From positions 3,533-67,532 of the forward strand of contig URHI01000001.1 in NCBI GenBank assembly GCA_900547565.1: a stretch of DNA of 64,000 nt, read 5' to 3'. This stretch comes from an uncultured Eubacteriales bacterium. GTDB taxonomy: Bacteria > Bacillota > Clostridia > Oscillospirales > CAG-272. Of the stretch, positions 121-15,644 are shown piece after piece. Position 1 is the first letter of the stretch; each line of letters opens with the position of its first letter. A program made the translations under genes and the position numbers. The notes under the pieces are model-generated. The model was not told the DNA's origin. It searched no databases and saw only the letters and a program-made list of their open reading frames with translations.

Positions 121-135
121 ATATCAAACCAAAAA

Positions 136-537: not shown

Positions 538-559
538 ATTGTACGTAAGGAGGTGTTGT

Positions 560-871: not shown

Positions 872-872
872 A

Positions 873-1475: not shown

Positions 1476-2383
1476 AAAGATCCATTAAAGTTGCAATAAT
1501 CGTGGCTGTCGCGCTGATAGCGGCAGGACTGCTCACTGTACTGGCCGCGTTTGCCGTCGGCGGTTTCGATATAAGATCATTCAACACCGTCACATACATC
1601 GAGAACTCAGTCCCGATAGACATACCGTTTGACAGCGTGTCAGTCGACTGCACAACTGCAGACGTGCGCATCATACGCTCTCCGGACGGCCGTGCACGTG
1701 TCGTATTCTCCGACTGTGATGACCACGCGATCTCCCATTCGGCAACCGTCCGTGACGGAGAACTGACCGTCACGCGCACCGACAACCGCACTGTGCACAT
1801 ATACGCAGAGGTCAACATCGGACAGGGCGGCCCAACAATTACTGTCTATCTGCCGCAGGACCAATACAGCGAGCTTGACATCAGTACAACCAGCGGAAAC
1901 GTTGACATTTCAGCGGGATTCCGATTTGATGAAGCTGAAATTCACACCACCAGCGGCTCAATCCACGCAGTCGGATGCACCGGTCAAAAGCTTGAGGGAC
2001 GTTCGTCAAGCGGGACTGTACGGCTTGAAAATGTGCAGTGTGAGGAAATAAAAGCACAAAGCAGCAGCGGCGGCATACAGCTTGAAGCCGTCCGTTGTCT
2101 GAATACAGAAGCGCAAAGCAGCAGCGGCACCATCCGCCTCACCGACGTCATAGCGACCGGCTTTATCAAAATTCACAACAGCAGCGGAGGCGTGCGTCTG
2201 GCCCAAAGCGACGCTCCAAAACTGCAAATTGAGACCTCAAGCGGCAGTGTCACCGGTTCCCTGCTGACATCAAAATTATTTGATATCACAACATCAAGCG
2301 GCACCGTACGACTGCCCGAGCAGGGCGACGGAGGTGTGTGTGAGATCAGAACCTCCAGCGGAAATATAAACTTAACCCAATAA
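1472..2383 (+). CDS. DUF4097-like beta-helical repeat protein with an N-terminal TM anchor
   Basis: ATGA overlap with the upstream gene. There is one TM helix, then about 9 repeats of [ST]SSG.[IV].[LG] (TTSGNVDI, SSSGTVRL, SSSGGIQL and others). Confidence 0.7.
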   Translation: MKRSIKVAIIVAVALIAAGLLTVLAAFAVGGFDIRSFNTVTYIENSVPIDIPFDSVSVDCTTADVRIIRSPDGRARVVFSDCDDHAISHSATVRDGELTVTRTDNRTVHIYAEVNIGQGGPTITVYLPQDQYSELDISTTSGNVDISAGFRFDEAEIHTTSGSIHAVGCTGQKLEGRSSSGTVRLENVQCEEIKAQSSSGGIQLEAVRCLNTEAQSSSGTIRLTDVIATGFIKIHNSSGGVRLAQSDAPKLQIETSSGSVTGSLLTSKLFDITTSSGTVRLPEQGDGGVCEIRTSSGNINLTQ

Positions 2384-2389
2384 CGGACA

Positions 2390-2431
2390 AAAAGCTCTGA
2401 CGGACGATCTTTATCCGCCAGAGCTTTTATC
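2390..2431. terminator. Bidirectional rho-independent terminator
   Basis: 15-bp stem aaaagctctgacgga / tccgccagagctttt with 1 mismatch. T-runs are present on both strands. It lies between convergent genes. Confidence 0.65.
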
Positions 2432-2480
2432 ATATCCTAAGGATGGCTGATTAAATCCCCTTCCCTGTCACAGCCTTCGC

Positions 2481-3632
2481 TCAGAGCTTGCTTGCAAACT
2501 CCGCCGCCTGCTCCTCGGTCATATCCGGGTCTACATTTATGTAAACCGTACGGCTGAGTATGTCAAGCGTGCGAGGGCACATATCTGTGGTATAGTCGGT
2601 TCTCAGCCCCTGATTTTCCTTCATCAGGAAGGGATCCATAGCCGGGTGCGACGCTCCCTTTTTATTCAGTATGAAAGTCCAGTTGGAATATACGTGCTTT
2701 CCGGTGTCGATAGGCAGCTTGGTGTGGCAGGGTGCATTCTCCGCAAAGCGGCGTGCCTCAGCCTCACTATCAAACTGAAGCGCCAGCGTAGTTCCGCAGT
2801 CACCATCAATATCATTGGAGGGAATACATTTGTACTTGGCGCCGATAGTCTGCATCATTATGCGCTTGTTGCGGCGCAGATCTGCAAGTATGCCGTCAAG
2901 ACGGTCAAGCTGAACCGACAGTATTGCACCGCTGAACTCGTTGGCACGGTACTCGGTACCGGCAAACACCGGCTCGGAAATGTCATCGAGCTGATTGCCG
3001 AAATATGCTATAGCACAGCTGTCATGATATATCAGCGCCCGTTCGTAGATGCGGCGGTCAGAGGTTATGAGAGCACCTCCCTCTCCGGCAGAAACAATCT
3101 TGTAATAGTTGAAGCTGAACGCGCCGACATCGCCGATAGTGGCAAGTCTGCGGCCATGATAAGCACCGCCGTCTGCCTGGCAGGCGTCCTCAATAACGTG
3201 TATTCCATGCCTCCGGGCGATATCGCAAATTGCATCCATATTGCAGGGGAAGCCCTGAATGTGCACCGGCATGACCGCACGGGTGGCGGGGCCGATCTTT
3301 TTTTCAAAATCAGCGGGATCAAGCGTGCAGGATTCGTCTATCTCGGCCAGCACGGGAATAGCGCCTACTGCCAGTACAGCCATAGCGGAGGCTATATATG
3401 TATACGCCGGAACTATGACCTCATCGCCGGGGCCTATGCCAAGACCGACCAACCCGCTTATAAGTGCGCCCATACCGGACGTCATCATAACAGCATAATC
3501 GGCGCCGGTTATTTTCTTCATCTTCTCCTCACATGTATAGACCGTCTTAAGTATAGTATCGGTCTTGAAGAACTTTCTGCTGTTTACCACCGCCTCAACG
3601 GCAGCGACTTCTTCCTTGCCTATTCTGTACAT
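2481..3632 (-). CDS. DegT/DnrJ/EryC1/StrS family PLP-dependent aminotransferase
   Basis: Family-typical layout with ...FSFNYYKIVSAGEGGALIT (PLP-lysine region) and ...MPVHIQGFPCNMDAI...IEDACQA. Confidence 0.85.
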   Translation of the reverse strand: MYRIGKEEVAAVEAVVNSRKFFKTDTILKTVYTCEEKMKKITGADYAVMMTSGMGALISGLVGLGIGPGDEVIVPAYTYIASAMAVLAVGAIPVLAEIDESCTLDPADFEKKIGPATRAVMPVHIQGFPCNMDAICDIARRHGIHVIEDACQADGGAYHGRRLATIGDVGAFSFNYYKIVSAGEGGALITSDRRIYERALIYHDSCAIAYFGNQLDDISEPVFAGTEYRANEFSGAILSVQLDRLDGILADLRRNKRIMMQTIGAKYKCIPSNDIDGDCGTTLALQFDSEAEARRFAENAPCHTKLPIDTGKHVYSNWTFILNKKGASHPAMDPFLMKENQGLRTDYTTDMCPRTLDILSRTVYINVDPDMTEEQAAEFASKL

Positions 3633-3646
3633 AGCTGATTTCTCCT

Positions 3647-4477
3647 TTACCAGTTTTCGTTGAGATACTTGAGGCTGATAGCTGCACTCTCTTTGTTTGT
3701 ATATCTTGTCTTGTCAAGCTCGGCACAGAGATAGCCGCCGTAGTTAACGCTCTTGAGCACGCGGAACACGCCCGGGAAATCTACAATACCCTCTCCCAGC
3801 TCGCGGAAGTTGCTGTACACCTCAACACCTATAGTCTGATCAATACCTCTGACGTCCATGTCGCCGGTTATATCCTTGAGATGCACAAACTTTATGCGCT
3901 CTTTGTACCTGTCGAACATGGTAACGGGGTCGCACTTGCCGGCAACCAGATGGGCAGTGTCGGGACCGAAGCCGACCAGCTCGGGATCTGTATTCTGCAT
4001 AATAAAATCGATCTCATTTTCGTACATTATCGACGAATTGAAGTGCGGGTGCACACAGGGCGTGATGCCGTACTCGCGGCAGATTTTGGCCACCTCAATT
4101 GTGGTGTTCAGAGCGTAGCGCATGTGCTCGTTGTCGGCGAGGTTGGTGTACGGCTCGGGGCGGCTCGGGAACATGGCACTCTGCAGGCTTATGGTCTTTA
4201 TTCCGTTCTTGGCAACAAAGCCTATGCGATCCTTAAGCCCTATAACGTCGTTTTCGTAGTTGCCCTTAAGATGAAAGTAAAAGCTGACCGGGTGTACGTC
4301 ATACTCGTCTGTTATGGCCTTGAAGTCGGCAAAATCGTTTATAAATGTGTCTATAAAAGCGCGCACGCTTTCAAAATATTTAAAGCCCACTGCGCTCATA
4401 TCGGCACAGGACTGTATAAATTCTTCGCGTGTTTTGGTACCCCATGGCCACTGGGCGTATGCGAACTGATTTGACAT
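3647..4477 (-). CDS. Sugar phosphate isomerase/epimerase (xylose-isomerase-like TIM barrel)
   Basis: 276 aa with family-like motifs (HPHFNS, DTAHL, VHLKD). Confidence 0.8.
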   Translation of the reverse strand: MSNQFAYAQWPWGTKTREEFIQSCADMSAVGFKYFESVRAFIDTFINDFADFKAITDEYDVHPVSFYFHLKGNYENDVIGLKDRIGFVAKNGIKTISLQSAMFPSRPEPYTNLADNEHMRYALNTTIEVAKICREYGITPCVHPHFNSSIMYENEIDFIMQNTDPELVGFGPDTAHLVAGKCDPVTMFDRYKERIKFVHLKDITGDMDVRGIDQTIGVEVYSNFRELGEGIVDFPGVFRVLKSVNYGGYLCAELDKTRYTNKESAAISLKYLNENW

Positions 4478-4482
4478 GATGT

Positions 4483-5799
4483 TTATTTTCTCCTTTTGAA
4501 TAATTCGATAAGCAATGAAAGATTTTGTTTAATAAGCAGACTGTCCGAATCGTCTGTAAGTCCGAAGGCCTTGCCAAAGCGGAAGGTGCCTATCTCATAT
4601 CCGCCGCGGCATATTTCTTCCTTATTGGGCAGATAGACGTTGGAGCCGTTTGTATTGCAAATGCACAGCGTATCGTCAAAGGGGCTGTAATGGCGAAGCC
4701 GCATGGCAATGACCGAAAACAGCTCAAACGGGAACGGCACTATGGCGATACCTCCAACTGCGACTATTACCTGCTCGTAGCTATACTCAGTTTCAGGCTT
4801 TTTGCCTTGCTTGTATATATCCAGCATATCCAGCACGTGACGGTATTCAAGATATTTGAGATTTGTCAGCTTGGACGGGTCGGGATACCGTGCGAGGATA
4901 TCGGACAGCTCATTCTCGAGATACTCACGTGAGGGAAGCGGGCAATATGGCAGCGTTACGGTACCGGTAATGACATCTATCACGGCATCGTCACGATAAT
5001 CGGATATTCCCTGCCGGGCCCGCAGTGCATCGGCCGCGGCAACAGCTCCCACCTCGGCGACATATGTGATATCGGCCGTGGTTTTTCCGTTGCTCAGGCG
5101 CGGCCCGACATCACCCGACGCGGCGTTAAAAAACATAGCAAGCCCGCCGTATTCGCGCTCCAGTGCATCAGTCATAGGACCGGGCCAGTCGCGCGTGACC
5201 TCGTGGTTACAGCCGGCACAGGTTCCGTGGCAACCGTAATGAACTATATTGACCAGCTGTGATCCGTCATCGCGTACCAACGACAGCACCGTCAGCCTCG
5301 GGTCAAAAGGTCCCCATGGGTTTTGTCCCAGGTGAACGTTGGACTCGGGATCTATCTCACGGCGGTTGATACCCAGGCGGCTCTCGGTCTGTCCGACACC
5401 AAGCCTTACCCTGCAGAGTGAGCCTGCAGCTGCGGCAACCGCTTTGAGAGTTTGAGGCATAAGTATTTCGTCGACAAACTTGTAGTCAATACCGCCCCAG
5501 CCCTCCATATCGGAAGCATTGGGTGCCGAGTGCGTGTGCGTGGCAGACGCCACAATGCGCGATTTTGACAGTCCGGTCAATGCGGCTGCTTCGCTTCTCA
5601 TACGGTCGGCAACCTCGTTGGCCAAAAGCCCCATATCGCAGTCTATGAACACAACGCTCTCATGACTGTCCGTCAGATAGAGCACATTCACGTTTATATC
5701 ATCGTTGACAGAAGTTGCCTCGACGCCCGGCTTATAGCCGAACAGGCATGTGCCCAGCGGCGGGGTTATTTTTTCTCTTGCCACACCGGCAAATAACAT
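4483..5799 (-). CDS. Neutral/alkaline ceramidase N-terminal-domain-like hydrolase, no signal peptide
   Basis: The N-terminus AGVAREKITPPLGTCLFGY...SATHTHSAPN...HYGCHGT resembles the neutral ceramidase fold. RBS aaagga precedes the ATG. Confidence 0.6.
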   Translation of the reverse strand: MLFAGVAREKITPPLGTCLFGYKPGVEATSVNDDINVNVLYLTDSHESVVFIDCDMGLLANEVADRMRSEAAALTGLSKSRIVASATHTHSAPNASDMEGWGGIDYKFVDEILMPQTLKAVAAAAGSLCRVRLGVGQTESRLGINRREIDPESNVHLGQNPWGPFDPRLTVLSLVRDDGSQLVNIVHYGCHGTCAGCNHEVTRDWPGPMTDALEREYGGLAMFFNAASGDVGPRLSNGKTTADITYVAEVGAVAAADALRARQGISDYRDDAVIDVITGTVTLPYCPLPSREYLENELSDILARYPDPSKLTNLKYLEYRHVLDMLDIYKQGKKPETEYSYEQVIVAVGGIAIVPFPFELFSVIAMRLRHYSPFDDTLCICNTNGSNVYLPNKEEICRGGYEIGTFRFGKAFGLTDDSDSLLIKQNLSLLIELFKRRK

Positions 5800-5826
5800 A
5801 TGATCAGATCCTTTCCGGACAAGCCG

Positions 5827-7629
5827 TCAGTTATATATTTCGTTGCCCCGGTTTGGGGTATACGGCAGCGACAACGTGACGTTTCTGCCGTCGGCATAGA
5901 ATATCTCAAGCACGTTCAGCTTGTTTACAAGATAATAATTCTGATAGTATTCAGACAGCGTACTGCTTGCCGAGGCCAGCTGTACGGCTTTTTCCTCGCT
6001 GTTCGGCCACAGTATTACCGAAGGATCGACATGCTTATAAAACTCCACCGATGCCGCAACATATCCGTGATGCGCCACCTGCATGATATCGCTCTTGAGA
6101 TAGTCTCCGAAGCGATCGATCATGATCTTGCAGCCTTCCTTGAGTATATCGCCGAGTATCATAACTGTCTGACCGCCGGCTTTGATGCGCGTCACCATAC
6201 TGGTGTTATTGAACTTGGCAATAGGGTCGGGATACATATCCTCCTGCGTATACAGCACCTCAAGTTCAAGTCCCTTGAGCCTGACCGGTTCTCCGGTGTG
6301 CAGCTTGACCAGCTTAAAGCCGCCAACCGCCTGACTTGCGGCCTGGTATTTTTCCGCCATAAAATAATGCGGTTCGTCCGAATTCATAACGGAGGTATAC
6401 GACGGAGTATTGCACAGGAAATATTTGACTTCAACCTTTGAACCGTATTTGCAGCAGAAGTCATACAAATTGGCATAATGGTCCCAGTGCTCGTGTGTCA
6501 ACAGCCACGCCGAGATGACTATTTTGCCGTCAGGACGCTCGTTAAGTGTGTTCAGCAGGTTGTACAGACGGTCAAAATCACCGTTTACGTTGCCGCCGCT
6601 GTCGTAGATCAGAAATGAACCGTCCTCCAGCGTGACAATATAGCACATTCCTATGTTTTTTCCGCCTGTGTAGTCCAATATCATCTGCGTGACCTTGATA
6701 TTGGTAATTGGCGTATATTCCTCGTCCTCAACAAAATTGGTTTCGGACAGCGGCGCCGATACCAACCGCGTCACACCGTTACACGGCGAGAACGACACGT
6801 AAATCACGGTGTCCTTTGCCGCGCTTTTGTAGCATATGAAGCGGTTATCGGTTATACTGTTTTCATACACCCGCTCGTACCCGGACGCGGCGAGCGTGCT
6901 CTCGTACGCCTCAAAGTCGGACAGCGAGGTATCAGTGTAGTACCATAACAGATTGTTATCGTTGCAGTCAGTGGTGCCTGTCAGCCGACCGGCTGTGAAG
7001 GCGGGAATATCAACTCTCCAGGTATACTCTTTTTTCAGCTGGACAAGGTCGCCTGCAAGCTCGAGAGCCTGCGATTTGGTTGAATAGTTAAGTTTGAAAT
7101 ATGTAGTAAAGCTGTCAATAGCCGACGACAGTGAGGTAAGGTTCCAGCCGAATATGACCAGCTTGTTCCCCCTGACACCGAAGCCGTACTGATTGATTGC
7201 CATATCCGCCATAAATTCGGCAGACTCGGCGCGGTTGGTTTCGCCGATCAGTATTTCGTGCTCGGAGGAGTGATCTTCCGATGCGCCCACAGCATCACTT
7301 TTGAGCTTGATCGACACATTTGAATAGTTCAGAAAGGTGTTGGCCATTTGCTGTGCCATAGTGCGGACGGTATCGTCACCTGAGCGGTATACTATGACAA
7401 AATCGGTCTTGCCGTCCTTGACAAAGGATAGCGGCTCGGCCGCCGGCACCGTGGTATCATCCGTCGGTGCGGTGGTGTTCTCAACGGACGCCGTTGTGCT
7501 GCCCGACACTTCCGGAGTTGTATCTCCGGACGTTGTGTCGGCAGGGACATTATTGTTATTGCACCCAGCAGCCAGCATTGACAGTGTAAGCAGCGCTGCT
7601 ATCAGGGTGGAAAATCTGATTTTTTTCAT
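5827..7629 (-). CDS. Surface lipoprotein: Thr-rich linker, shared N-module and MBL-fold metallo-hydrolase domain
   Basis: Signal peptide plus Cys (LSMLAAGC). The HxHxDH motif LLTHEHWDHYANL is present. The N-module is FVIVYRSGDD...EILIGETNRAES. Confidence 0.7.
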   Translation of the reverse strand: MKKIRFSTLIAALLTLSMLAAGCNNNNVPADTTSGDTTPEVSGSTTASVENTTAPTDDTTVPAAEPLSFVKDGKTDFVIVYRSGDDTVRTMAQQMANTFLNYSNVSIKLKSDAVGASEDHSSEHEILIGETNRAESAEFMADMAINQYGFGVRGNKLVIFGWNLTSLSSAIDSFTTYFKLNYSTKSQALELAGDLVQLKKEYTWRVDIPAFTAGRLTGTTDCNDNNLLWYYTDTSLSDFEAYESTLAASGYERVYENSITDNRFICYKSAAKDTVIYVSFSPCNGVTRLVSAPLSETNFVEDEEYTPITNIKVTQMILDYTGGKNIGMCYIVTLEDGSFLIYDSGGNVNGDFDRLYNLLNTLNERPDGKIVISAWLLTHEHWDHYANLYDFCCKYGSKVEVKYFLCNTPSYTSVMNSDEPHYFMAEKYQAASQAVGGFKLVKLHTGEPVRLKGLELEVLYTQEDMYPDPIAKFNNTSMVTRIKAGGQTVMILGDILKEGCKIMIDRFGDYLKSDIMQVAHHGYVAASVEFYKHVDPSVILWPNSEEKAVQLASASSTLSEYYQNYYLVNKLNVLEIFYADGRNVTLSLPYTPNRGNEIYN

Positions 7630-7637
7630 TTAATACC

Positions 7638-9143
7638 TTAGCTTATTTTTTTGAATGCTTCTACAAACTGGTCGAGCTTGTTGCTCCACAGCTTGCTTGA
7701 GGTTTTATAATATGATGCAAAGTTTGACGACTGCTGGGTAGCGCAAAGCTCGGTCAGACGCGGCCCACAGTTATATATCAACCCGAAATCATATCTGATG
7801 CCTGCACGTATGATCTCCAGCATCTCGGCCTGCTCGGCATCCTCGGCATATTTGTACTTGAGCGCCTTGTCGAAGGTTTCGGGTGTCACATATCGCCAGC
7901 TTTCGGCACACAGCGCCTCGGCTATCATGCCCGACATAGCAGGGTCGCGCGCGGTCTTCATGACCTCGACTGCCGATGCGGCATTGTCGCTGAGCGTGTA
8001 ATAATCCGGCTGAGCCTCGTTATACTTGGGCAGAGGAATTATGCCGTAGGTATCGTCCATATCGGTGAACACGCCCATAAGCGCTGTAACAAGCTGACCT
8101 GGCATCATGAGCGCCTGTCCGTTCTTGAACATGGTGTAGTAGCCCTGCTTCCAGTCAAAGAATGAATAACAGCCGGGGGTATTGTACATGAGGTCGTATA
8201 TCTTGGCGCTTATGTCTATCCACTTTTCCTGATCAGGATCAAGTATAGGCATACCGTCAGCATTGTGCTTGACTGAAATGGCATCAAACGACGCCTGGAA
8301 TGCCATGGGATAACCGGTACACTGAAGCGCACAGCCATATGTATCGCTCTCGTCACGGATACCGTTTCCGTCGTCAATGTAGACGTTGCTGAGCACCGTC
8401 AGAAACTTTTCATAAGTCCACTCACCACGGGACACTGTGGCATAAATGCCGTCAAGCCCATACTCCTTAGCCATGGCACGGTTGAAATAAATGCCGTACA
8501 TGGACTCAATATATGACTGTACGATATCTCCGACAATGAAATACGTCTCTCCGCCTATGCTGAGCTCATCATAAGCAACATTATTCCACCATTCGCGTGA
8601 AATATCAATGTTATCCACCTGGGAGAAGGGCAAAAAGCAGTCCTGTGTGATGAGCAGTGCCGACCATGAAGCACGCTGCGCAATAAGGTCAAAGCTGTCC
8701 TCTGTAGCTCCGGACGTCACTATGTTTTTGATCTTGTTATTGAGATCCTGATTGGTGTCGGTGGAAAAGTCAAATCGCACACCGAAGCGGTCCTCAACTG
8801 CAAGTTGTGCGGCGTGAATGGCACTTTGAATAGCGTCACCGCCGTGTGATTCCACAATAAAGTCGTCTACCGCAGGGCTGTAATTCTGAATCAGAATACG
8901 GTAGATTGCATTGTTGTAATTGGCTTCGGGGAGGTTATCCTGAACATCGGCGCGGTTGGTAACGGCAGTGGTTGTATCGGCCGGCGTGGTTGTATCGTTC
9001 TGAGTTTCCGACGAATCCGGCGAGACGCTCTGGCTGTCACCCGGAGTGGTGGTATCGTCGTTGGGATTAACCGTGGGCTTTGTACATGCTGCAAAGCAAA
9101 TCAGCATACAGCACATGATCAGTAGAGTAATAGTGCGTTTCAT
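7638..9143 (-). CDS. Orphan extracellular solute-binding-protein-like lipoprotein (paralog of 20189..21667)
   Basis: The start is chosen at MKRTITLLIMCCMLICFAAC (RBS ggagag). A Thr-rich linker follows. Family-1 SBP-like. There is no adjacent permease or ATPase. Confidence 0.65.
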   Translation of the reverse strand: MKRTITLLIMCCMLICFAACTKPTVNPNDDTTTPGDSQSVSPDSSETQNDTTTPADTTTAVTNRADVQDNLPEANYNNAIYRILIQNYSPAVDDFIVESHGGDAIQSAIHAAQLAVEDRFGVRFDFSTDTNQDLNNKIKNIVTSGATEDSFDLIAQRASWSALLITQDCFLPFSQVDNIDISREWWNNVAYDELSIGGETYFIVGDIVQSYIESMYGIYFNRAMAKEYGLDGIYATVSRGEWTYEKFLTVLSNVYIDDGNGIRDESDTYGCALQCTGYPMAFQASFDAISVKHNADGMPILDPDQEKWIDISAKIYDLMYNTPGCYSFFDWKQGYYTMFKNGQALMMPGQLVTALMGVFTDMDDTYGIIPLPKYNEAQPDYYTLSDNAASAVEVMKTARDPAMSGMIAEALCAESWRYVTPETFDKALKYKYAEDAEQAEMLEIIRAGIRYDFGLIYNCGPRLTELCATQQSSNFASYYKTSSKLWSNKLDQFVEAFKKIS

Positions 9144-9289
9144 AAAATCCTCTCCTAAAAATAATTTGAACGGATTTGACAGCGTCTTTTCGGACGACAC
9201 CGTGCCGCTCTGACATCCGGAGCTTAAGACGCCGGCGCTCCTGACGTATTGGCGGCCGCCGCAAGCGGCACGGTATGGCCCTATTACAG

Positions 9290-10138
9290 TTATGCTTCTC
9301 GACCGTATTGTCTTGACTCGCTTCGATATTCTGACGGCGTCATGCCGCAGTATTGCTTGAATATCCTGCTGAATTTCTTGCCTTGACTCATACCGCAGGC
9401 ATCACCCACTTCGCGTATGGTCAGCGGTGAGCCTTCAAGCAGATATTTTGCCTCATCAATACGGCAATTATTGAGATACTGAAGAAATGTAAGTCCGGTC
9501 GATGCCTTGAACACACGGCAGAAGCTGGTGCGTTCATAGCCTGCGACCGAGGCTACCGAGGAAATGGAAATGTCCTCGGCAAAATGCTGATCGATGTAGT
9601 TAAGCGCCACCTGCACGTTCTGCAGATACTGCAGGTGACCCTTGCGCTTGCGCGTTACCGTGCCTATTGTAGGCAGGCTGCGGCACAGAAGTGATGCCAT
9701 AAGCATGACATAACCCTGGAGCGCCCAGCTGGTATCCGGCGACTGTTGTTCCTTGAGTTTTTCCTCAAGTATGAGTCCAAGCAAGCGGGCAAGCTCGGCC
9801 GTCCAGCGTTGGCCGTCGTTAAGACGTATTACATGCTCAGGGCAGCAATGCGTCAGAAACCAGCTGAATTCCTCGCCGAGCATATGCTCTCCGACGATTA
9901 TCAGCATTTTTTCGGCATCTGCATGCGGCTGCTCCAGCCGATGCTCTTCCGCGCTGTTGACAAATATGACCTCTCCGGGGTTGGCAGTTACCTTTTCACC
10001 TTCCACTTCCATGTGTACCCGTCCGCTTATGCACCAATTCAGCTCGATCTCCTTGTGCCAGTGGTACGGAAATGACGGACCGGCGGCAATGGATACCTGA
10101 TACTTTTTTTCTTTTCTGAGTGGTGGCTGATACATCAT
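9290..10138 (-). CDS. AraC family transcriptional regulator (cupin plus HTH)
   Basis: The C-terminal AraC HTH reads ISISSVASVAGYERTSFCRVFKASTGLTFLQYLNNCRIDEAKYLL. The N-terminal part is cupin-like. Confidence 0.9.
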   Translation of the reverse strand: MMYQPPLRKEKKYQVSIAAGPSFPYHWHKEIELNWCISGRVHMEVEGEKVTANPGEVIFVNSAEEHRLEQPHADAEKMLIIVGEHMLGEEFSWFLTHCCPEHVIRLNDGQRWTAELARLLGLILEEKLKEQQSPDTSWALQGYVMLMASLLCRSLPTIGTVTRKRKGHLQYLQNVQVALNYIDQHFAEDISISSVASVAGYERTSFCRVFKASTGLTFLQYLNNCRIDEAKYLLEGSPLTIREVGDACGMSQGKKFSRIFKQYCGMTPSEYRSESRQYGREA

Positions 10139-10161
10139 AGCGTGTTTACCTCCGTTGCGGT

Positions 10162-11190
10162 TTACAGTGAAATTTTACCGACTCGGATCTCGGGCTGCGA
10201 CCATGCGGCCGCCTGCTTTTCCATTTCGGCAATTTCACTGATGCCGTCCGATGCTCCCGCAGTGAGCAGTGAGCAATTCGCGGCCAGCGTTCCCAGCTTC
10301 ATTGCCGCGTCGAGCGTGTATCCGCGGAACGCGCCCAAAAGGACTCCGGAACAGAAGGCGTCACCTGCACCGGTGGTGGAGGCAATTGCCTCGCGCGGCA
10401 CGCCGTAGACCGTTGCTTTGACGTAATTGCCCTGCGCGTCCACGCCGTAGCTTGCCAACTTGGAGTGAATTACCACCCACTCGCTGACTCCACACTCACG
10501 CAGAGCGCGGAAAACTGACGGCAGATTATCTTCGATTATACCACTGTCCCCCGACAGCTGTATACCCGTCGTACGTTCAGCTTCAAGCTCATTGATAATG
10601 CAGTAATCCGTGTATTTGAGTGCCGGCATGACTATGCCGCGAAAGCGCGTGCTGTTCTCACTGACGATATCAACCGAGGTTTTGAGTCCGCGCTCCTTTG
10701 CGCCTGCCAGCAGGCGGGCCAGTTTTGTTCCGTATTCGGCATCCGGGGCATCCAGCGCCTTAAGCAGAAGTATGTAGCCTATGTGAAGCAGTCCTTCATA
10801 GTCGTCAAGCTCAAGACAGCTCTCGTCAAAGTTTTCGTTTGCCCCCGCAAACTGGAAGAACGTGCGTGTATTGTTCTGCTTTTCGTACATAACGTCGGTA
10901 AATGACGTCTGACCGCTGATCTTTATTCCGCTGACATCGATGTTTTCATACGCGCTCAACACGTCCAATATAAAGCGTCCCTGCTGATCGTCGCCTACAA
11001 GCCCCGCGGCGTATAACGGAAGCTCGGGATCCATTCTGGCAAGATCCTGTATGCAGTTGCAGACAAGTCCGCCAGGAGCCAAAGACAGCTCGCTGATGTT
11101 GGCCAGTGTAGAAGGTGCGGGGTATGCGTCCAGCCGTTTGAGCTGATCTGCTATAATGCTTCCTGCACAGATTATCCCTCTTTTTTTCAT
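10162..11190 (-). CDS. PfkB family carbohydrate kinase
   Basis: C-terminal TTGAGDAFCSGVLLG and N-terminal GGLVCN motifs. The ATG at 11190 lies 1 nt after the upstream stop. Confidence 0.85.
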   Translation of the reverse strand: MKKRGIICAGSIIADQLKRLDAYPAPSTLANISELSLAPGGLVCNCIQDLARMDPELPLYAAGLVGDDQQGRFILDVLSAYENIDVSGIKISGQTSFTDVMYEKQNNTRTFFQFAGANENFDESCLELDDYEGLLHIGYILLLKALDAPDAEYGTKLARLLAGAKERGLKTSVDIVSENSTRFRGIVMPALKYTDYCIINELEAERTTGIQLSGDSGIIEDNLPSVFRALRECGVSEWVVIHSKLASYGVDAQGNYVKATVYGVPREAIASTTGAGDAFCSGVLLGAFRGYTLDAAMKLGTLAANCSLLTAGASDGISEIAEMEKQAAAWSQPEIRVGKISL

Positions 11191-11191
11191 T

Positions 11192-12226
11192 TTATCTCTC
11201 ACCCATAAGATGTGCCAGAACGTATGCTTCCAGCTTTTCGTAGTTACGCTCCGCTATGCACTTATTTTTATAATCGTTGTCAAAGGTTTCAACCTTTTTC
11301 TCCAGCATTTTGACCATTTCCATGCTGTTGATGATGTGGCGGTAACAGTCATCGGCCTTTTGCGTACGCATAACCTTTACATCAAGCCCGACATACTCGC
11401 CGCCGGCACCGTAGTTATTGTCACACAGCACCTTGATCTGGTTGAAGGCCGAACGGATATTCTCGGAGCCAAAAGATTTATCCTGATCGTATCTCATTCC
11501 GTTCTGGTCGTTGAGATGCACGCTTCCCAGCTTGCCGAAGGACAGCGCAAACGCCATTTCAATAGCGGGATCAAGTCCTGCAAGTATGGCATGTGCGCTC
11601 TCAAGCACGGCGCCTACACGGGCGGGATCAACCGTTGAGGCAGACACAGCCATAACATGACCGACCGTCGGACAAAAGCTGCGGTCAATAGGCTCATTGG
11701 GCTTAGGCTCGATAAGCACACGGATATTATCGTCATATTTCAGCATTTTGTTTATGCTTTCGATAAGCTTATGCGTCTTCTCGACCGGATCTTTTGTCTC
11801 GGCGCAAAGTGTACCCTCGCGGGCAAGCCACAGTACTATGTTGCGTGCTCCCAGCTCGCGGGCAATGTCAATGGAGCGGAAGGCTCTCCACATTGCGAAT
11901 TCATAGTCCTCGTCCGAGTTGGAAGTAAAGCCGCCGTCGGTCGTGTGGGGATCCATCCAAAGACGGGGCGCTACAAATTCGGCGGCCAATCCGTATTTAT
12001 CCAGCTTTTTCTTTACCTCGCGGGCGGCCGCCTTGATTTCGGCCTCGTTGAGATTGTTCATATCCGGGACAGCATCATCGTCGTGGAATTGCACGGCGGA
12101 CAGGCCTATCTCGGCAAATTTCCTGAATTTTTCTTCGATATCAATAGTCGGACGCACCTCGGGACCGAACGCATCCGCGCCCTCGTGAACATTCCAGGGA
12201 CCTGCTGTAAACTTGAATCTTGACAT
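11192..12226 (-). CDS. Class-I xylose-isomerase-like sugar isomerase (short, 344 aa)
   Basis: Motifs align by eye to actinobacterial XylA: FHDDD, LAREG, EPKPNEP, ESAHAILAGL, HLNDQNG, YDQD. Confidence 0.75.
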   Translation of the reverse strand: MSRFKFTAGPWNVHEGADAFGPEVRPTIDIEEKFRKFAEIGLSAVQFHDDDAVPDMNNLNEAEIKAAAREVKKKLDKYGLAAEFVAPRLWMDPHTTDGGFTSNSDEDYEFAMWRAFRSIDIARELGARNIVLWLAREGTLCAETKDPVEKTHKLIESINKMLKYDDNIRVLIEPKPNEPIDRSFCPTVGHVMAVSASTVDPARVGAVLESAHAILAGLDPAIEMAFALSFGKLGSVHLNDQNGMRYDQDKSFGSENIRSAFNQIKVLCDNNYGAGGEYVGLDVKVMRTQKADDCYRHIINSMEMVKMLEKKVETFDNDYKNKCIAERNYEKLEAYVLAHLMGER

Positions 12227-12256
12227 GACTTTCTCCTTTTTATGTATATTATTAAT

Positions 12257-13405
12257 TTACTGTTCAATGCTTATCCATCTGCGCTCCCGGCTGCTATGCA
12301 CAATGGCCTCTGTCAAGCGGACTATGTATGCAGCATCTTCAAAGGTGGCAAAATCGGGCTTATCGGTGCGGTCGGAGGCGAGATAGCGGTAAAACGCCCG
12401 GATATTTCCGCAAAAGGCGTCGTTCCAGCCCTCGGGATGACCCATAGCCAGCGAGGTATACTGTCTGACCTCGGGCGCCATAGTGTTGGGATTGCGGATT
12501 ATGTAGTGGTTGTCACCATCGCGGTGCCCTTCCCACAGACGGTCATTCTCCTCCTGATTCCAGCGCAATGATGCTTTGCTGCCATTGACCTCAATACCAA
12601 AGCAACAACCGTGTCCGGCGCTTATTTCCGAAACGTGAAACGAACCGTGCGCACCGTTGTCCATGCGGAACAGCACTGCGGCGTATTCTTCATTTTCAAT
12701 TTTGCGGAGCTCGTATTCAAAATCTTTGCGGCTGGTAAACGTTTCGGTCGCTTTGACCGGCTTTTTACGGTATGGAATGAATGTGTTGAGATCGCCCATC
12801 ACCTCGGTTATACGGGCGCCGGTTATGTGCTGTACGGCATCCATCCAGTGCGAGCCGATATCGGCCACACAACATGAAATACCGCAGATGTCGGGCTCAA
12901 GCCGCCACGAATAATCAGTATCGTACAGCAGCCAGTCCTGCTGGTACGCTCCCGACAGCACTCTTACCTCGCCTATGCTGCCGTTTGCAATGCGGTATCG
13001 CATTTCCTGAACCATGGGATTCATGCGGTAATTAAAGTTTACTGCCGCAACGACCTCAGGGTGGCGCGCCTTTATCTCAAGCAATTCACACGCCTCGGAA
13101 TAATTGCGCGCCAGAGGCTTTTCACTGAGCAGATGCTTACCCGACTCGATTATTTTTTTGTTGATCTCCAGATGAAGATGATTAGGCGTACAGTTGTGTA
13201 TTACGTCTATGTCCGGGTCAGCCAACAGCTGCTCCACCGAGGCATAGCATTTGGGAATACCGTACACCCCGGCCTTTTTGGCGGCCAGCTCGGCATTTGT
13301 GTCGGCAACCGCCTCAAGTCGGCAACCGGCAACGCGTCGCACGGCATCGATGTGGCTTTCACCTATGTAACCCATCCCTATGATACCCACTCTGAATTGT
13401 TTCAT
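12257..13405 (-). CDS. Gfo/Idh/MocA family oxidoreductase
   Basis: Rossmann-type N-terminus MKQFRVGIIGMGYIGESHIDA. RBS aggaga precedes the ATG at 13405. Confidence 0.85.
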   Translation of the reverse strand: MKQFRVGIIGMGYIGESHIDAVRRVAGCRLEAVADTNAELAAKKAGVYGIPKCYASVEQLLADPDIDVIHNCTPNHLHLEINKKIIESGKHLLSEKPLARNYSEACELLEIKARHPEVVAAVNFNYRMNPMVQEMRYRIANGSIGEVRVLSGAYQQDWLLYDTDYSWRLEPDICGISCCVADIGSHWMDAVQHITGARITEVMGDLNTFIPYRKKPVKATETFTSRKDFEYELRKIENEEYAAVLFRMDNGAHGSFHVSEISAGHGCCFGIEVNGSKASLRWNQEENDRLWEGHRDGDNHYIIRNPNTMAPEVRQYTSLAMGHPEGWNDAFCGNIRAFYRYLASDRTDKPDFATFEDAAYIVRLTEAIVHSSRERRWISIEQ

Positions 13406-13440
13406 TGGTTCTCTCCTGTTATGATATTTTGACTGTCGTA

Positions 13441-14382
13441 TCAGTCTTCGAACAGACCGTACTGCTCCAGGGCATATTTTCCTATACTGTAAAGCAGACT
13501 CTCGGCCTGAATACAAATCTCACGTGACGCATTGAAAAGCCGCGGTGCCTCACCTCCGGGACCGACAAACTCATTGCGCTTGTGCGGCCATGCTCCGGCA
13601 GGCATTATCATATTGCTCGCCTCAAAAGTAAACGGTCCCCCGAAGCCTACGGCAATCAGCCCCTGAATCACGGCATCAAGATTGAGTGTACCCATAAACG
13701 GTGCTATATGCTCGTCATACTTGCCGTAGTTGTCCTGAATGTGCACCGCCCGTAGCAGGTCGCCCAGCGCGACTATGTCGTCGTACTGGTTCACCCCGCG
13801 CATGTTGGCGTGTCCGGTATCCCAACAGGCGAAAAGTCTGTCAAAGTCGGTGTATTCTATAAATTCACGTATGTCTGCCCCGGTAAAAAAGAAGTATTTA
13901 CTTCCCATATTGCCCTCAGCGCTGTTTTCGGTCAGCACATTGACGCCGTAGTGCTCGGCGTCGTCCATCAGGCGGGCATAAAACTCACGGTTTTCGGCAT
14001 AATAGCGCTCACGTCCGCCGTCCGCAGGAATATCGCGGCTAAAACCCGCGTGCGTTACCAAATTTGGTATACCGAGAATGCCGCATGCTTCTATAGTTCG
14101 GCGCATGGCAAGCATACCTGTCTCGTGGTCGGCGGCGGGATCAAACGGATTGTAGCCCGGCGCATGCGCCTGCACATATGTAACTCCGTATTTTGCCGCA
14201 GCACCGGCATATTCGTCTATATAACGCTGGTAGTCATCTCCGACCAGCCGTGATCCCGGGCGATGATCGGTGTAAAAGCTTACGTCAAGATATTTAAACC
14301 CGGTTGTCCGGAAATTTCCTATTATACGGTCGGGTGTGTCTCCGCTCCAGAACAGGTCCCCTGTTGTTGTTGCAAGCTTCAT
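13441..14382 (-). CDS. Sugar phosphate isomerase/epimerase (xylose-isomerase-like TIM barrel)
   Basis: MKLATTTGDLF...; HAP, TEN, WDTGHAN and HIQDN motifs. RBS aaaggag precedes the ATG at 14382. Confidence 0.8.
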   Translation of the reverse strand: MKLATTTGDLFWSGDTPDRIIGNFRTTGFKYLDVSFYTDHRPGSRLVGDDYQRYIDEYAGAAAKYGVTYVQAHAPGYNPFDPAADHETGMLAMRRTIEACGILGIPNLVTHAGFSRDIPADGGRERYYAENREFYARLMDDAEHYGVNVLTENSAEGNMGSKYFFFTGADIREFIEYTDFDRLFACWDTGHANMRGVNQYDDIVALGDLLRAVHIQDNYGKYDEHIAPFMGTLNLDAVIQGLIAVGFGGPFTFEASNMIMPAGAWPHKRNEFVGPGGEAPRLFNASREICIQAESLLYSIGKYALEQYGLFED

Positions 14383-14419
14383 TGGCACATACTCCTTTCG
14401 CGCATTATCTGACAAATTC

Positions 14420-14448
14420 ATTATAACACAAAGAAGTGCTTATTTCAA
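14420..14448 (-). promoter_or_regulatory. Sigma-A type promoter of the 14382->2481 operon
   Basis: On the minus strand: TTGAAA (14448-14443), 17-nt spacer, TATAAT (14425-14420) with an upstream TGt extended -10. Confidence 0.55.
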
Positions 14449-14932
14449 CATTCCTTCACCCCCGTTAGTGACTGTTTTTTCTTAAATATTTGCCCATTTT
14501 TTTGCCTATCCAGTATTATTGACTTGCTTTTCGACTAAATAATATTTTTATCAGTCCAGGACAAGCCTATTTTCCCATTTTTTAGGAGATTTTGAGATGC
14601 AAAGGTCAGCCTGGCCGGCAAATAAATGAGACATGCCGCTCATCTCGGTTACAATTCAGGCAAAAAAATGATACCGCTTGCCGTATCCGTGCAAATTCAA
14701 GACAAAAGCCGTAAATATTTTAGTATAAAATCACCTGTCCCGAGGTGATTAAGAATTGTTCCGTTTGTTGTGCCGCTGCGGTATTTTCCTTCCGTTTCGA
14801 CACGTTGCGACTGTTCGCGCAATATCATATTAGTGGAACAAAATTCCACCCGGCAAAAGCACCGGACACTGACTAAATCCGGTGCCGGACAGGTAAAAAT
14901 ATACCTGAAACTAAAAGACAGGGGACATGATC

Positions 14933-15517: not shown

Positions 15518-15578
15518 CGAAAAAGCGGCCCTGCTTATGCAAAACAGCAATAATTATATGCTTTTTTCGCCTAACCTC

Positions 15579-15607
15579 TTGATTTTTAGGCGGAAAATGA
15601 TTAAAAT
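15579..15607 (+). promoter_or_regulatory. Sigma-A type promoter of fba
   Basis: TTGATT (15579-15584), 17-nt spacer, TAAAAT (15602-15607). Confidence 0.55.
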
Positions 15608-15644
15608 ATAGAGTGATATATTTTGTATTCAAAGGAGATTCAAA

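Follow-up and report, generated by a model that had tools for sequence, protein, structure and literature searches.

The window, that is, the whole stretch of 64,000 nucleotides that was analysed, holds ten co-directional open reading frames on the minus strand, g1 to g10, which occupy positions 2481 to 14421 as read and 2481 to 14382 once the start of g1 is corrected (Table 1). Since the ATG at 14421 falls within the promoter, the more likely start of g1 is the ATG at 14382, which follows GAAAGGAG; the other corrected starts are 13405 for g2, 11190 for g4, and 9143 for g6. With these starts, the intergenic gaps are 1 to 35 bp, except for the 146 bp between g5 and g6. In a consensus scan, the promoter scored 11 out of 12, the top of 26 sites in the region, and its −35, −10, TG, and RBS are all kept in a related locus, L088, whose DNA is 86–91% identical. 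The layout is the one given in the original prediction, one strong promoter followed by ten tightly spaced genes.

Table 1. Genes and other features of the cluster, in positions of the window.
Feature	Positions	Strand	Basis
Conserved upstream regulatory region, repeated GCAAATA-type blocks	14449..14693	-	repeat search; L088 alignment
Sigma-70-type promoter, TTGAAA-17 nt-TATAAT, extended -10 TG	14420..14448	-	scan and direct reading
g1, xylose-isomerase-like TIM barrel, 313 aa	13441..14382	-	PF01261 (AP_endonuc_2), 110 bits
g2, Gfo/Idh/MocA NAD(P) oxidoreductase, 382 aa	12257..13405	-	Pfam, NCBIfam, PDB
g3, truncated class-I xylose-isomerase-like aldose-ketose isomerase, 344 aa	11192..12226	-	NCBIfam, PDB
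g4, PfkB-family sugar kinase, 342 aa	10162..11190	-	PF00294, 92 bits
g5, AraC-family regulator, cupin sensor domain	9290..10138	-	Pfam
g5-g6 spacer, 146 nt, stable branched hairpin without U tail	9144..9289	-	sequence and folding
g6, solute-binding-protein-like surface lipoprotein, 501 aa, lipobox FAAC	7638..9143	-	SBP_bac_8, 28 bits (weak)
g7, MBL-fold surface lipoprotein, 600 aa, lipobox LAAGC	5827..7629	-	PF00753 (Lactamase_B)
g8, predicted cytoplasmic Zn amidase, neutral-ceramidase catalytic fold, 438 aa	4483..5799	-	PF04734 and AlphaFold model
g9, IolE-like xylose-isomerase-fold TIM barrel, 276 aa	3647..4477	-	PF01261 (AP_endonuc_2)
g10, DegT-family PLP aminotransferase, KdnA-like subfamily, 383 aa	2481..3632	-	PF01041, 223 bits
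Hairpin flanked by A and T runs, where the g10 and DUF4097 genes converge	2390..2428	.	direct reading

Upstream of the promoter, conserved blocks are seen in the alignment with L088 (alignment A6) as far as position 14693, where the homology ends, and we infer that the GCAAATA-type repeats there are candidate AraC-type operator sites. The g5–g6 spacer has a fold energy of −57.5 kcal/mol (z −2.5) and is not conserved in L088; its hairpin may serve in processing or stabilisation, or as a point of internal regulation. The consensus scan found no promoter-like site in this spacer and no convincing terminator between the g1–g5 and g6–g10 halves, the one weak terminator-like site inside the cluster on the minus strand lying within g7 (7444–7430). 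The hairpin and T run about 50 bp past g10 are absent from the scanner's list; judging by the sequence, they are likely to form a bidirectional intrinsic terminator.

Families were assigned to the ten genes with Pfam and NCBIfam profiles, which, together with an AlphaFold model for the fold of g8, reproduced every family named in the original prediction. The same profiles detected no transporter permease, glycosyltransferase, nucleotidyltransferase, phosphatase, acyltransferase, or exporter among the operon genes. Neither the operon, as had been noticed earlier, nor its vicinity encodes an importer, and the sole complete ABC system in the window is of the Opp type.

The nearest solved relatives of g1 are MJ1311 and ketose 3-epimerases, and all of these matches are weak. 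The oxidoreductase g2 scores 176 bits against LevoglcsnDh (cut-off 650) and 116 against IolG (cut-off 355); its PDB matches (4h3v, 6a3f, and 5ya8) place it in the neighbourhood of levoglucosan, scyllo-inositol, and L-glucose dehydrogenases, with the levoglucosan dehydrogenase 6a3f as the closest characterised solved relative. The isomerase-like g3 reaches 205 bits against xylA_Arthro (cut-off 447), and its residues 5–318 match Streptomyces and Arthrobacter xylose isomerases at about 160 bits. Compared with a reference sequence, it presumably keeps the xylose-isomerase catalytic and metal residues, except that D245 is replaced by H. Since g3 additionally matches PF01261, the number of TIM barrels from this family in the operon rises from two to three. 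The kinase g4 reaches no NCBIfam equivalog and scores 48 bits against IolC (cut-off 300). In the second half, g9 scores 87 bits against IolE (cut-off 290), and its PDB matches are IolE (3cny), 8tcs/8tcd, and the hydratase 8ro4. The entries 8tcs/8tcd, weak matches deposited under the generic names of xylose-isomerase-like and sugar phosphate isomerase TIM-barrel proteins, we take to be 3-keto-glycoside lyases.

The aminotransferase g10 reaches no NCBIfam equivalog; its Schiff-base lysine for PLP, K178, is present in every sequence of alignment A1. Over 341 residues, g10 shares 35% identity with KdnA, and its family profile matches KdnA over the full length with 283 bits, whereas other solved DegT enzymes reach at most 199 bits, mainly in the N-terminal domain, inosose aminotransferases at most 196, in the N-terminal domain alone, and NtdA 95–131. 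In sequence, g10 is therefore closest to KdnA and not to NDP-sugar or inosose aminotransferases. By these scores, g10 does not cluster with NDP-sugar enzymes, as expected, and inosose aminotransferases match it less well than KdnA does. DegT-family reactions are reversible, so the direction of g10 cannot be read from its sequence. KdnA of Shewanella (PDB 5k8b) acts on a free, non-nucleotide sugar acid and makes Kdo8N directly from free Kdo (PMC4402001). The KdnA/KdnB pathway belongs to envelope biosynthesis, whereas the partners of g10 are an amidase and TIM barrels, a catabolic context. The operon has no Fe-ADH partner, although a KdnB-like one adjoins two distant g10 relatives, and its host is a Clostridia bacterium, presumably without LPS or Kdo.

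The amidase g8 scores 27.6 bits against PF04734 (Ceramidase_alk), under the cut-off of 32.1; its family profile matches the human (4wgk) and P. aeruginosa (2zws) neutral ceramidases with an E-value of about 3e-13, the HTHSGP motif being aligned. With the AlphaFold model (pLDDT 96) as a Foldseek query, neutral ceramidases alone were matched (E 4e-29, TM 0.76), so that the catalytic-domain fold is the same, and H88, H90, R146/147, H191, E359, Y389, and Y401 are invariant in the family alignment. By these alignments, g8 retains all of the Zn-binding and catalytic residues of neutral ceramidase, and an amidase role is predicted, which fits the deacylation step first suggested. In contrast to the true ceramidases, to which it is about 16% identical, g8 has about 430 residues rather than 650–700, lacks the C-terminal domain, has no detectable signal peptide, and is genetically coupled to sugar enzymes.

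The two lipoproteins, g6 and g7, are kept together in three loci (L086, L087, and L088). A paralogue of g6, which has no partner permease in the operon, lies at 20189–21667 (26% identity). In the model of g7 (pLDDT 89), the MBL domain finds its best matches in the ComEC MBL nuclease domain (9ic4) and in Pce/CbpE, the pneumococcal teichoic-acid phosphorylcholine esterase (2bib/1wra), with E-values of 5e-13 and 4e-12 and about 16% identity. The phospholipase NAPE-PLD, also of MBL fold, is among the fold matches, and sulfatases, lactonases, and hydroxylases appear among the lower ones. The HxHxDH motif at residues 379–384 is invariant in the alignment. As modelled, g7 contains a binuclear metallo-β-lactamase-fold domain whose solved fold relatives are phosphodiesterases, a likeness at the level of fold that does not fix the substrate; release of a phosphoester at the surface, as originally proposed, would fit it. 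Both Pce and g7 are surface-exposed, but g7 is lipid-anchored, lacks choline-binding repeats, and begins with a possibly GH20b-like domain, a label given because one homologue, P0264, carries PF02838. The same N-terminal domain occurs in the alkaline-phosphatase lipoprotein. GDPD and alkaline-phosphatase surface enzymes are among the other products encoded in the window.

Is the cluster a unit? L088 shares with the window exactly positions 2481 to 14693, promoter included, while its flanks are unrelated to those of the window and carry IS fragments. Therefore, the cluster is a unit, with all ten genes moving together between sharply defined boundaries. L087 represents the same strain, and L086 keeps g6–g10 at 53–72% protein identity. 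A census of 15 Clostridia loci, with five genes on either side (102 proteins), gave AP_endonuc_2 (9), AraC (8), and Ceramidase_alk (8) as the top families. Many Clostridia MAGs have a conserved core of four families (AraC, TIM barrel, ceramidase-fold amidase, and DegT): all four occur together in L003-5, L011, and L038, the amidase and DegT genes are neighbours in L006, L008, L010, L012, and L013, g9 adjoins this pair in 11 loci, and g1 homologues adjoin the DegT gene in L001 and L003-5. The pair is also found in Defluviitaleaceae, Verrucomicrobia, Prolixibacteraceae, and Anaerolineae. In other phyla, genes in the vicinity of DegT relatives encode deacylases (YdjC or Amidohydro_2), TIM barrels, Gfo/Idh/MocA enzymes, regulators of the ROK and LacI types, and sugar ABC transporters.

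At about 85 related loci, the frequent neighbours are TIM barrels, AraC regulators, deacylases, Gfo/Idh/MocA enzymes, and sugar ABC transporters, in keeping with the catabolic setting predicted for the DegT enzyme. Glycosyltransferases, the neighbours that had been named as speaking against such a setting, are not among the frequent families at these loci, but biosynthetic genes (Epimerase and Polysacc_synt_2) do adjoin a minority of distant DegT relatives. Beyond close relatives, the set that stays together is limited to g8–g10, the AraC regulator, and a g1-type TIM barrel. Homologues of g3 and g4 were found with the DegT gene only in two close relatives, and in L088 a deletion of about 500 bp has truncated g4, so the downstream half of the route proposed below may be strain-specific or dispensable.

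On balance, we favour, with moderate confidence, an AraC-controlled catabolic operon that would break down an N-acylated amino sugar from a phosphodiester-containing extracellular glycoconjugate; an aminocyclitol is a less likely class of substrate. The comparisons establish the gene families, the folds, the conservation of catalytic residues, and the linkage of the genes; from family or fold we infer each step, and likewise the substrate, the sequence of reactions, and which way the flux runs. The SBP-like lipoprotein g6 would capture the substrate at the cell surface, and g7, as a Pce/ComEC-type metallo-phosphodiesterase, would free a transportable unit, to be taken into the cell by an importer encoded elsewhere. 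There, g8 would remove the N-acyl group and g10 would transfer the nitrogen of the free amine to a 2-oxo acid, leaving a keto- or aldehydo-sugar. The carbonyl sugar would then be isomerised, epimerised, or dehydrated by g9 and g1, its redox state adjusted by g2, and a ketose formed by g3, which g4 would phosphorylate for entry into central metabolism. The operon shares its pairing of a Gfo/Idh/MocA dehydrogenase and a DegT aminotransferase with NtdABC (kanosamine), GnnA/GnnB, and WbpB/WbpE, which interconvert hydroxyl, keto, and amino groups on sugars, and the proposed catabolic steps would be this chemistry in reverse. All of these serve biosynthesis, with sugar phosphates or UDP-sugars as substrates, and the conserved core described here differs from them in having an amidase instead of the dehydrogenase. 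No published description of the module was found in the literature. If correct, the proposal would add a so far uncharacterised route of amino-sugar breakdown in gut Clostridia; the organism itself comes from gut samples.

The alternative that survives best, although we hold it to be rather unlikely, is that one promoter serves two independent modules, g1–g5 for a neutral sugar or cyclitol and g6–g10 for amide or amine acquisition, with the product of the latter bypassing g1–g4. The reduced set retained in other genera, the strong hairpin in the 146-nt spacer, and the truncated PfkB gene of L088 beside an intact g6–g10 would all agree with this. So would the compact g6–g10 block of L086, except that the contig starts 210 bp upstream of the g6 homologue, and absence of g1–g5 is thus not established. 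Against it stand the movement of all ten genes as a single block, the lack of a promoter-like site in the spacer and of a convincing terminator between the halves, and the recurrence of Gfo/Idh/MocA genes and g1-type TIM barrels near DegT relatives (L001, L003-5, L008, and L053).

Catabolism of a rhizopine-type inosamine or another inositol derivative, in which g10 would convert inosamine to inosose, g9 would be the dehydratase, g2 the inositol dehydrogenase, and g4 an IolC-like kinase, appears improbable. The operon has several families in common with the iol and moc systems for myo-inositol and rhizopine (Gfo/Idh/MocA, an IolE/MocC-like TIM barrel, PfkB, an SBP, and a transcriptional regulator). 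Among solved structures, g9 is nearest to IolE, g2 weakly matches the scyllo-inositol dehydrogenase 5ya8 and IolG, and enzymes for scyllo-inosose and 2-deoxy-scyllo-inosose are among the DegT matches of g10. The inositol likeness pointed out originally is a resemblance between families. However, g2, g9, and g4 fall far short of the IolG, IolE, and IolC equivalog cut-offs, none of the ten products corresponds to IolD, IolB, IolJ, IolA, or the MocDE oxygenase, and the full-length match of g10 is to KdnA. Moreover, the operon adds an amidase, an MBL lipoprotein, a DegT enzyme, and g3, an aldose-ketose isomerase with no role in cyclitol breakdown. Taken together, these comparisons lend an inositol or inosamine pathway no support and leave it a low probability.

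Still less probable is the catabolism of lipid amides, for example sphingolipids (such as ceramide phosphoinositol, ceramide phosphoethanolamine, or sphingomyelin of Bacteroides or dietary origin) or N-acyl-ethanolamine-type lipids. Here, g7 would cut the phospho-head group at the surface, g8 would be a true ceramidase or N-acyl amidase, g10 would turn the sphingoid base or amino alcohol into a hydroxy-ketone or aldehyde by deamination, and the iol-like g2, g9, and g4, distant relatives of IolG, IolE, and IolC, would consume an inositol head group. The fold and catalytic residues of g8, for which no other fold relative is known, the NAPE-PLD match of g7, the GDPD and alkaline-phosphatase enzymes, and the gut origin are in its favour. 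Nevertheless, g8 is a cytoplasmic protein without the C-terminal domain that true ceramidases have, all iol scores lie below the equivalog cut-offs, and the substrates of all solved DegT relatives are sugars, cyclitols, or shikimate-type rings rather than lipids; the neighbours of the core are also of sugar type (TIM barrels, sugar ABC transporters, GH20, and heparinase-like), with no lipid-metabolism genes among them.

Least probable of all is biosynthesis of an amino sugar or aminocyclitol for an antibiotic or envelope decoration by kanosamine (NtdC/NtdA) or Kdo8N (KdnB/KdnA) logic, for which one could cite the NtdC/NtdA- and GnnA/GnnB-like pairing, NtdA among the PDB matches of g10, the biosynthetic role of KdnA, and the Epimerase and Polysacc_synt_2 neighbours of a few distant relatives. 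Against it, the most tightly linked partner is an amidase, the regulator belongs to the AraC type and has a cupin sensor domain, and the dehydrogenase that such a route needs is missing from the conserved core. The lipoproteins for surface capture and hydrolysis, like the isomerase-kinase pair, suggest a flow inward to central metabolism, and glycosyltransferases, nucleotidyltransferases, phosphatases, acyltransferases, and exporters are absent from the operon.

Returning to the breakdown of an N-acylated amino sugar, the oxidative 3-keto-sugar pathways (levoglucosan LgdA/LgdB, 3-keto-glycoside lyase/hydratase, and C-glycoside DgpA/DgpBC) offer a further comparison. Apart from its nearness to 6a3f, g2 has DgpA (9m37) among its matches, and g9 weakly matches the 2-hydroxy-3-keto-glucal hydratase 8ro4; all such similarities are weak, those of g9 to 3-keto-sugar enzymes being 25–58 bits. 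The carbonyl group is introduced by an oxidase or dehydrogenase in those pathways, whereas in the operon its source would be the aminotransferase. By analogy, a keto-sugar made by transamination could enter TIM-barrel chemistry of the 3-keto-sugar type.

It is tempting, though we hold it only tentatively, to propose that gut Clostridia and their relatives in other phyla have a new transaminative route for N-acylated amino sugars, in which g8-type enzymes would deacylate, a KdnA-like DegT aminotransferase would act catabolically, and TIM barrels would process the keto- or aldehydo-sugar. In the ten-gene operon of the window (g1 to g10, in order of transcription), the lipoprotein g6 would capture an extracellular glycoconjugate, which g7 would trim by phosphodiester cleavage, and a transporter encoded outside the operon would import the released unit. 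In the cytoplasm, g8 would deacylate it, and g10 would transaminate the free amine to give a carbonyl sugar. The TIM barrels g9 and g1 would isomerise, epimerise or eliminate, with g2 providing a redox step, g3 converting aldose to ketose, g4 phosphorylating the ketose, and g5 sensing the substrate or an intermediate. The targets are likely rare N-acyl amino sugars of microbial or host glycoconjugates. The substrate, the order of the steps and the direction of flux we infer from sequence, building on gene linkage and predicted catalytic competence.

The ten ORFs are co-directional on the minus strand, and Pfam and NCBIfam scans reproduced each of the ten family calls of the original prediction.

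Genes of the operon, in order of transcription (positions in the window)
Gene	Assignment	Coordinates	Strand	Source
g1	Xylose-isomerase-like TIM barrel	13441-14382	minus	Pfam/NCBIfam
g2	Gfo/Idh/MocA oxidoreductase	12257-13405	minus	Pfam/NCBIfam
g3	Class-I xylose-isomerase-like protein	11192-12226	minus	Pfam/NCBIfam
g4	PfkB kinase	10162-11190	minus	Pfam/NCBIfam
g5	AraC regulator with cupin sensor domain	9290-10138	minus	Pfam/NCBIfam
g6	SBP_bac_8, weak match	7638-9143	minus	Pfam/NCBIfam
g7	Lactamase_B	5827-7629	minus	Pfam/NCBIfam
g8	Ceramidase_alk, weak match	4483-5799	minus	Pfam/NCBIfam
g9	IolE-like TIM barrel	3647-4477	minus	Pfam/NCBIfam
g10	DegT aminotransferase	2481-3632	minus	Pfam/NCBIfam

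Start codons were revised for several of these genes; GAAAGGAG precedes the ATG at 14382, and the one at 14421 falls within the promoter. After correction the intergenic gaps are 1-35 bp, with the exception of g5-g6 (146 bp). The strong minus-strand promoter predicted earlier is borne out: TTGAAA-17-TATAAT with a TG extension is the top-scoring site of the region in a consensus scan. For terminator-like sites on the minus strand inside the cluster, the consensus scan listed a single weak one, within g7, and a hairpin with a T run lies 3′ of g10, at about 2390-2428.

The g5-g6 spacer (9144-9289) forms a stable branched hairpin (-57.5 kcal/mol, z -2.5) without a U tail, and the spacer is not kept in the related locus L088; possible roles of the hairpin are RNA processing, RNA stability or attenuation. 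GCAAATA-type motifs recur upstream of the promoter, within window positions 14449-14693 (one instance being TATTTGCCCATTTTTT, at 14487-14502 and 14568-14583), and are candidate AraC operator sites. Directly upstream of the operon, and divergent from it, is a PemK/MazF-type toxin gene (14927-15517, plus strand), also present in L087, a locus of the same strain. Downstream of g10, and convergent with it, are HAAS and DUF4097 (toastrack) genes (750-2383, plus strand), which in L087 adjoin a PadR-type regulator gene; they seem to make up a small module of their own, regulatory or stress-related, with no relation to the operon.

The ten-gene cluster is a unit. L087 comes from the same strain (99% identity across window positions 1-15799). 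L088 comes from a Hadza human-gut metagenome; its DNA is 86-91% identical to the window over one interval, which runs exactly from 2481, the stop codon of g10, to 14693, some 245 bp upstream of the -35 element, with no match to the window outside this interval. The -35, -10, TG and RBS are identical in L088, and several upstream blocks with GCAAATA-type repeats are also kept, the homology ending just past them. Since the L088 block is flanked by transposase fragments and unrelated genes, its different neighbours suggest that the cluster has moved. The fragments (rve, rve_2, HTH_21) bracket the block at L088 positions 1297-2227 and 14989-15402, and the L088 PfkB gene (L088 6172-6639) encodes 155 aa, having been truncated by the deletion of some 500 bp. 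In a third locus, L086, the five distal genes (g6-g10) are retained, their proteins being 53-72% identical. As a rival reading, two independent modules might share one promoter, which we consider unlikely. The best matches are from uncultured Clostridia (Eubacteriales, Acutalibacteraceae and Ruminococcaceae MAGs) of goat, sheep and human gut, and among GTDB representative genomes no g10 relative exceeds 62% identity.

The proposed transaminative route depends on g10. DegT-family enzymes are textbook biosynthetic enzymes, and in the related PMP-dependent dehydratases a His takes the place of the Schiff-base lysine. g10 scores 222.8 bits against PF01041 (DegT/DnrJ/EryC1/StrS; cut-off 19.8). Its PLP Schiff-base lysine, K178 in the motif SFNYYK, is invariant in the family alignment of g10 relatives and aligns with the corresponding lysine in the SFDSVK motif of KdnA; the EDACQA motif is likewise conserved. 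Therefore, g10 is an aminotransferase and not a PMP-dependent dehydratase. When g10 was ranked by bit score against characterised DegT enzymes (PDB and NCBIfam), it reached none of the NCBIfam NDP-sugar aminotransferase equivalogs (WecE, PseC, ArnB, LegC, DesI and others), the top score being 160 bits against a cut-off of 375 and the rest lying further below theirs. Among solved structures the Kdo8N transaminase KdnA (5k8b) is the best relative, with 188 bits over residues 43-379 in a single-sequence search (35% identity over 341 aa) and 283 bits with the g10 family profile, over positions 5-386 of 387. Other solved DegT enzymes reach at most 199 bits against the profile, mainly in the N-terminal domain, and all fetched g10 relatives are KdnA-like by best full-length profile match. 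The substrate of KdnA is free Kdo, not a nucleotide sugar (PMC4402001). In the KdnA/KdnB system the Fe-dependent alcohol dehydrogenase KdnB is adjacent and the host makes Kdo-containing LPS; the window ORFs that were scanned yielded no Fe-ADH, and, unlike the KdnA host, the closest g10 relatives are Clostridia MAGs.

As for the enzymes that would act on the sugar, g1 has weak matches to ketose 3-epimerases. g3 scores 205 bits against the class-I xylose isomerase equivalog (cut-off 447) and aligns with class-I xylose isomerases in the PDB over residues 5-318; it has 344 aa against about 388 aa, without the C-terminal extension. Compared with a xylose isomerase reference sequence, g3 seems to keep the catalytic and metal-ligand residues H54, D57, E181, K183, E217, H220, D255, D257, D287 and K289 and to have His for D245, a lead that agrees with its PDB alignment range. 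The nearest solved relative of g9 is IolE, with weaker matches to a 3-keto-glucal hydratase and to TIM-barrel entries which we take to be 3-keto-glycoside lyases, and g2 is nearest, in the PDB, to levoglucosan dehydrogenase and scyllo-inositol/L-glucose dehydrogenase. From its family set, the original prediction had likened the operon to inositol and inosamine catabolism, but the analogy does not hold at the level of equivalogs: g2, g9 and g4 fall far under the cut-offs (IolG 116 vs 355 bits, IolE 87 vs 290, IolC 48 vs 300), and no IolD, IolB, IolJ or IolA match was found among the ten gene products. Moreover, g10 is nearer to KdnA than to inosose aminotransferases, the BtrR/StsC-type (2-deoxy-)scyllo-inosose enzymes scoring 147-196 bits, below KdnA and in the N-terminal domain only. 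Membership of the iol pathway is therefore rejected, and inosamine or inositol catabolism in a broader sense is improbable. The rhizopine (moc) system, with MocA, MocB, MocC and the MocDE(F) oxygenase system, has counterparts in the operon at family level only (Gfo/Idh/MocA, SBP-like and TIM-barrel proteins), and the Pfam scan of the operon turned up neither a Rieske oxygenase nor a ferredoxin.

The deacylation step of the proposed amino-sugar route is assigned to g8, which scores 27.6 bits against Ceramidase_alk, below the gathering score of 32.1, and had no match in a single-sequence PDB search. Since such searches gave no or weak matches for g6, g7 and g8, profile and fold searches were needed. 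The g8 family profile matches the human and Pseudomonas neutral ceramidases (E about 3e-13, HTHSGP aligned), and the PDB matches of its AlphaFold model (pLDDT 96) are neutral ceramidases only (Foldseek E 4e-29, TM 0.76; 0.50-0.54 when normalised to the target). The invariant residues H88, H90, R146/147, H191, E359, Y389 and Y401 align with the HTHSGP, vHsT, aEf, sYv and eYE motifs of 2zws. We take these to be the counterparts of the residues that bind Zn and serve catalysis in the Pseudomonas enzyme, His97, His99, Arg160, His204, Glu411, Tyr448 and Tyr460 in P. aeruginosa numbering. By its model and motifs, g8 is a predicted amidase with the neutral-ceramidase fold and a full predicted catalytic set. 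At 438 aa, against 646-688 aa in ceramidases, it lacks their C-terminal domain, and no signal peptide was found in g8; its identification as a true secreted ceramidase is rejected. The fold of g8 would also suit lipid-amide or sphingolipid catabolism, with a sphingolipid as substrate and g10 deaminating the sphingoid base, which for an enzyme so shortened and a KdnA-like partner we regard as very improbable. When clustered at 50% identity, the short ceramidase-fold family has 240 clusters for E ≤ 1e-30 and 3775 for E ≤ 1e-10; to our knowledge, no short cytoplasmic bacterial relatives of neutral ceramidase have been characterised.

The coupling of g8-type (Cer) and g10-type (DegT) genes recurs elsewhere. 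Neighbourhoods were taken from 80 loci of representative genomes and 10 from exact-protein look-ups, with ORFs clustered de novo; divergent TIM barrels of related loci escaped BLAST at 1e-10, in place of which de novo clustering with a Pfam census was used. In Clostridia the recurring core begins with a divergent AraC gene, after which come a g9-type TIM barrel, Cer and DegT; it is complete in loci L003-5, L011 and L038; Cer adjoins DegT in L006, L008, L010, L012 and L013, and a g1-type TIM barrel lies 3′ of DegT in L001 and L003-5. Among 102 neighbours within ±5 genes in 15 Clostridia loci, AP_endonuc_2 (9), AraC (8) and Ceramidase_alk (8) were the top families, with one nucleotidyltransferase only and, among the families listed, no glycosyltransferase. 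Further Cer-DegT pairs lie in Defluviitaleaceae, Verrucomicrobia, Prolixibacteraceae and Anaerolineae. Immediate DegT neighbours in other phyla are heterogeneous, led by AP_endonuc_2, a second DegT, PhyH, Amidohydro_2, Gfo/Idh/MocA and Fe-ADH; nearby clusters include YdjC deacetylase-family, Amidohydro_2, enolase-superfamily and heparinase II/III-like proteins, and sugar ABC transporter, ROK and LacI genes were also assigned near DegT relatives. The common theme of deacylase, aminotransferase, TIM barrel and sugar uptake is a catabolic pattern. The catabolic setting predicted for this DegT enzyme thus stands, with a catabolic neighbourhood and no NDP-sugar equivalog; biosynthesis, to which the few distant DegT relatives adjoining biosynthetic genes would point, is rejected on the neighbourhood pattern as the least probable reading of all.

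Some loci carry other gene sets. In L002 (5257-11170) DegT lies 3′ of an OYE-type flavin reductase, an SDR, a 630-aa FAD_binding_2 protein and a 250-aa TIM barrel; L013 (1-11173) has a set of the same type, and there a heparinase II/III-like protein adjoins Cer-DegT. Such differences hint that the module exists in several versions, each specific for its own substrate. A 635-aa conserved protein without a Pfam match lies 3′ of TIM-Cer-DegT-TIM in L003 (12183-14090), L004 and L005, on Ruminococcaceae-type contigs.

Many MAGs of gut and rumen Clostridia show this tight and repeated linkage of Cer and DegT with a TIM barrel and AraC. The linkage, robust and widespread and with a predicted catabolic function, points to a widespread nutrient-scavenging pathway without an assignment so far; a full-text literature search found no published description of the Cer-DegT module. 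From its sequence, we rate the operon as a putative substrate-induced sugar catabolic operon around two enzyme types without known catabolic or bacterial cytoplasmic precedent. If this is true, the short ceramidase-fold family would gain its first function and a classically biosynthetic aminotransferase family a catabolic role. Identification of the substrate would annotate thousands of hypothetical genes, establish a new catabolic logic (deacylate, transaminate, isomerise), and could explain how some gut anaerobes recycle the cell-envelope sugars of other microbes.

The surface proteins g6 and g7 have lipoboxes (FAAC and LAAGC, respectively), followed in both by Thr/Pro/Asp-rich linkers. g6 exceeds the SBP_bac_8 cut-off narrowly (28.1 vs 27 bits), and a single-sequence PDB search with it gave no match. 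The corresponding search with g7 gave one weak match (9vc9, E 0.0023). In g7, the HxHxDH motif and the distal His and Asp metal ligands (H379, H381, D383, H384, D494, H520, H521) are invariant, and the top fold matches of its model (pLDDT 89) are the ComEC MBL nuclease domain (9ic4) and then pneumococcal Pce (2bib/1wra). Both of these nearest folds, the ComEC MBL domain and the teichoic-acid phosphorylcholine esterase Pce, are phosphodiesterases, and by motif and modelled fold g7 is a member of the ComEC/Pce-type MBL-fold phosphodiesterases, with predicted activity. The surroundings of distant g7 homologues, at about 40% identity, are unrelated and gave no functional clue; one homologue has a GH20b Pfam match. 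No BPD_transp_1 permeases were found in the operon, in agreement with the earlier view that it encodes no recognisable importer, so that of a CUT1-type importer (SBP, two permeases and ATPase) g6 alone is present; the window has one complete ABC system only, of Opp type (33764-42381).

A second lipoprotein pair spans 18325-21667 on the minus strand. It consists of a g6 paralogue (492 aa, 26% identity, 20189-21667) and then a 614-aa alkaline-phosphatase lipoprotein, whose two tandem N-terminal domains are homologous to the N-terminal domain of g7. The two pairs of SBP-like protein and surface hydrolase suggest a modular capture-then-hydrolyse surface system, and this twofold occurrence in the window may be a Gram-positive substrate-capture arrangement that merits its own study. 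With a 637-aa GDPD-domain protein (28152-30065, plus strand), the alkaline phosphatase and g7 make three phosphoesterases in 30 kb, the latter two being lipoproteins. A BspA-type LRR_5 lipoprotein gene (17393-18274, minus strand) separates the operon region from the alkaline-phosphatase pair.
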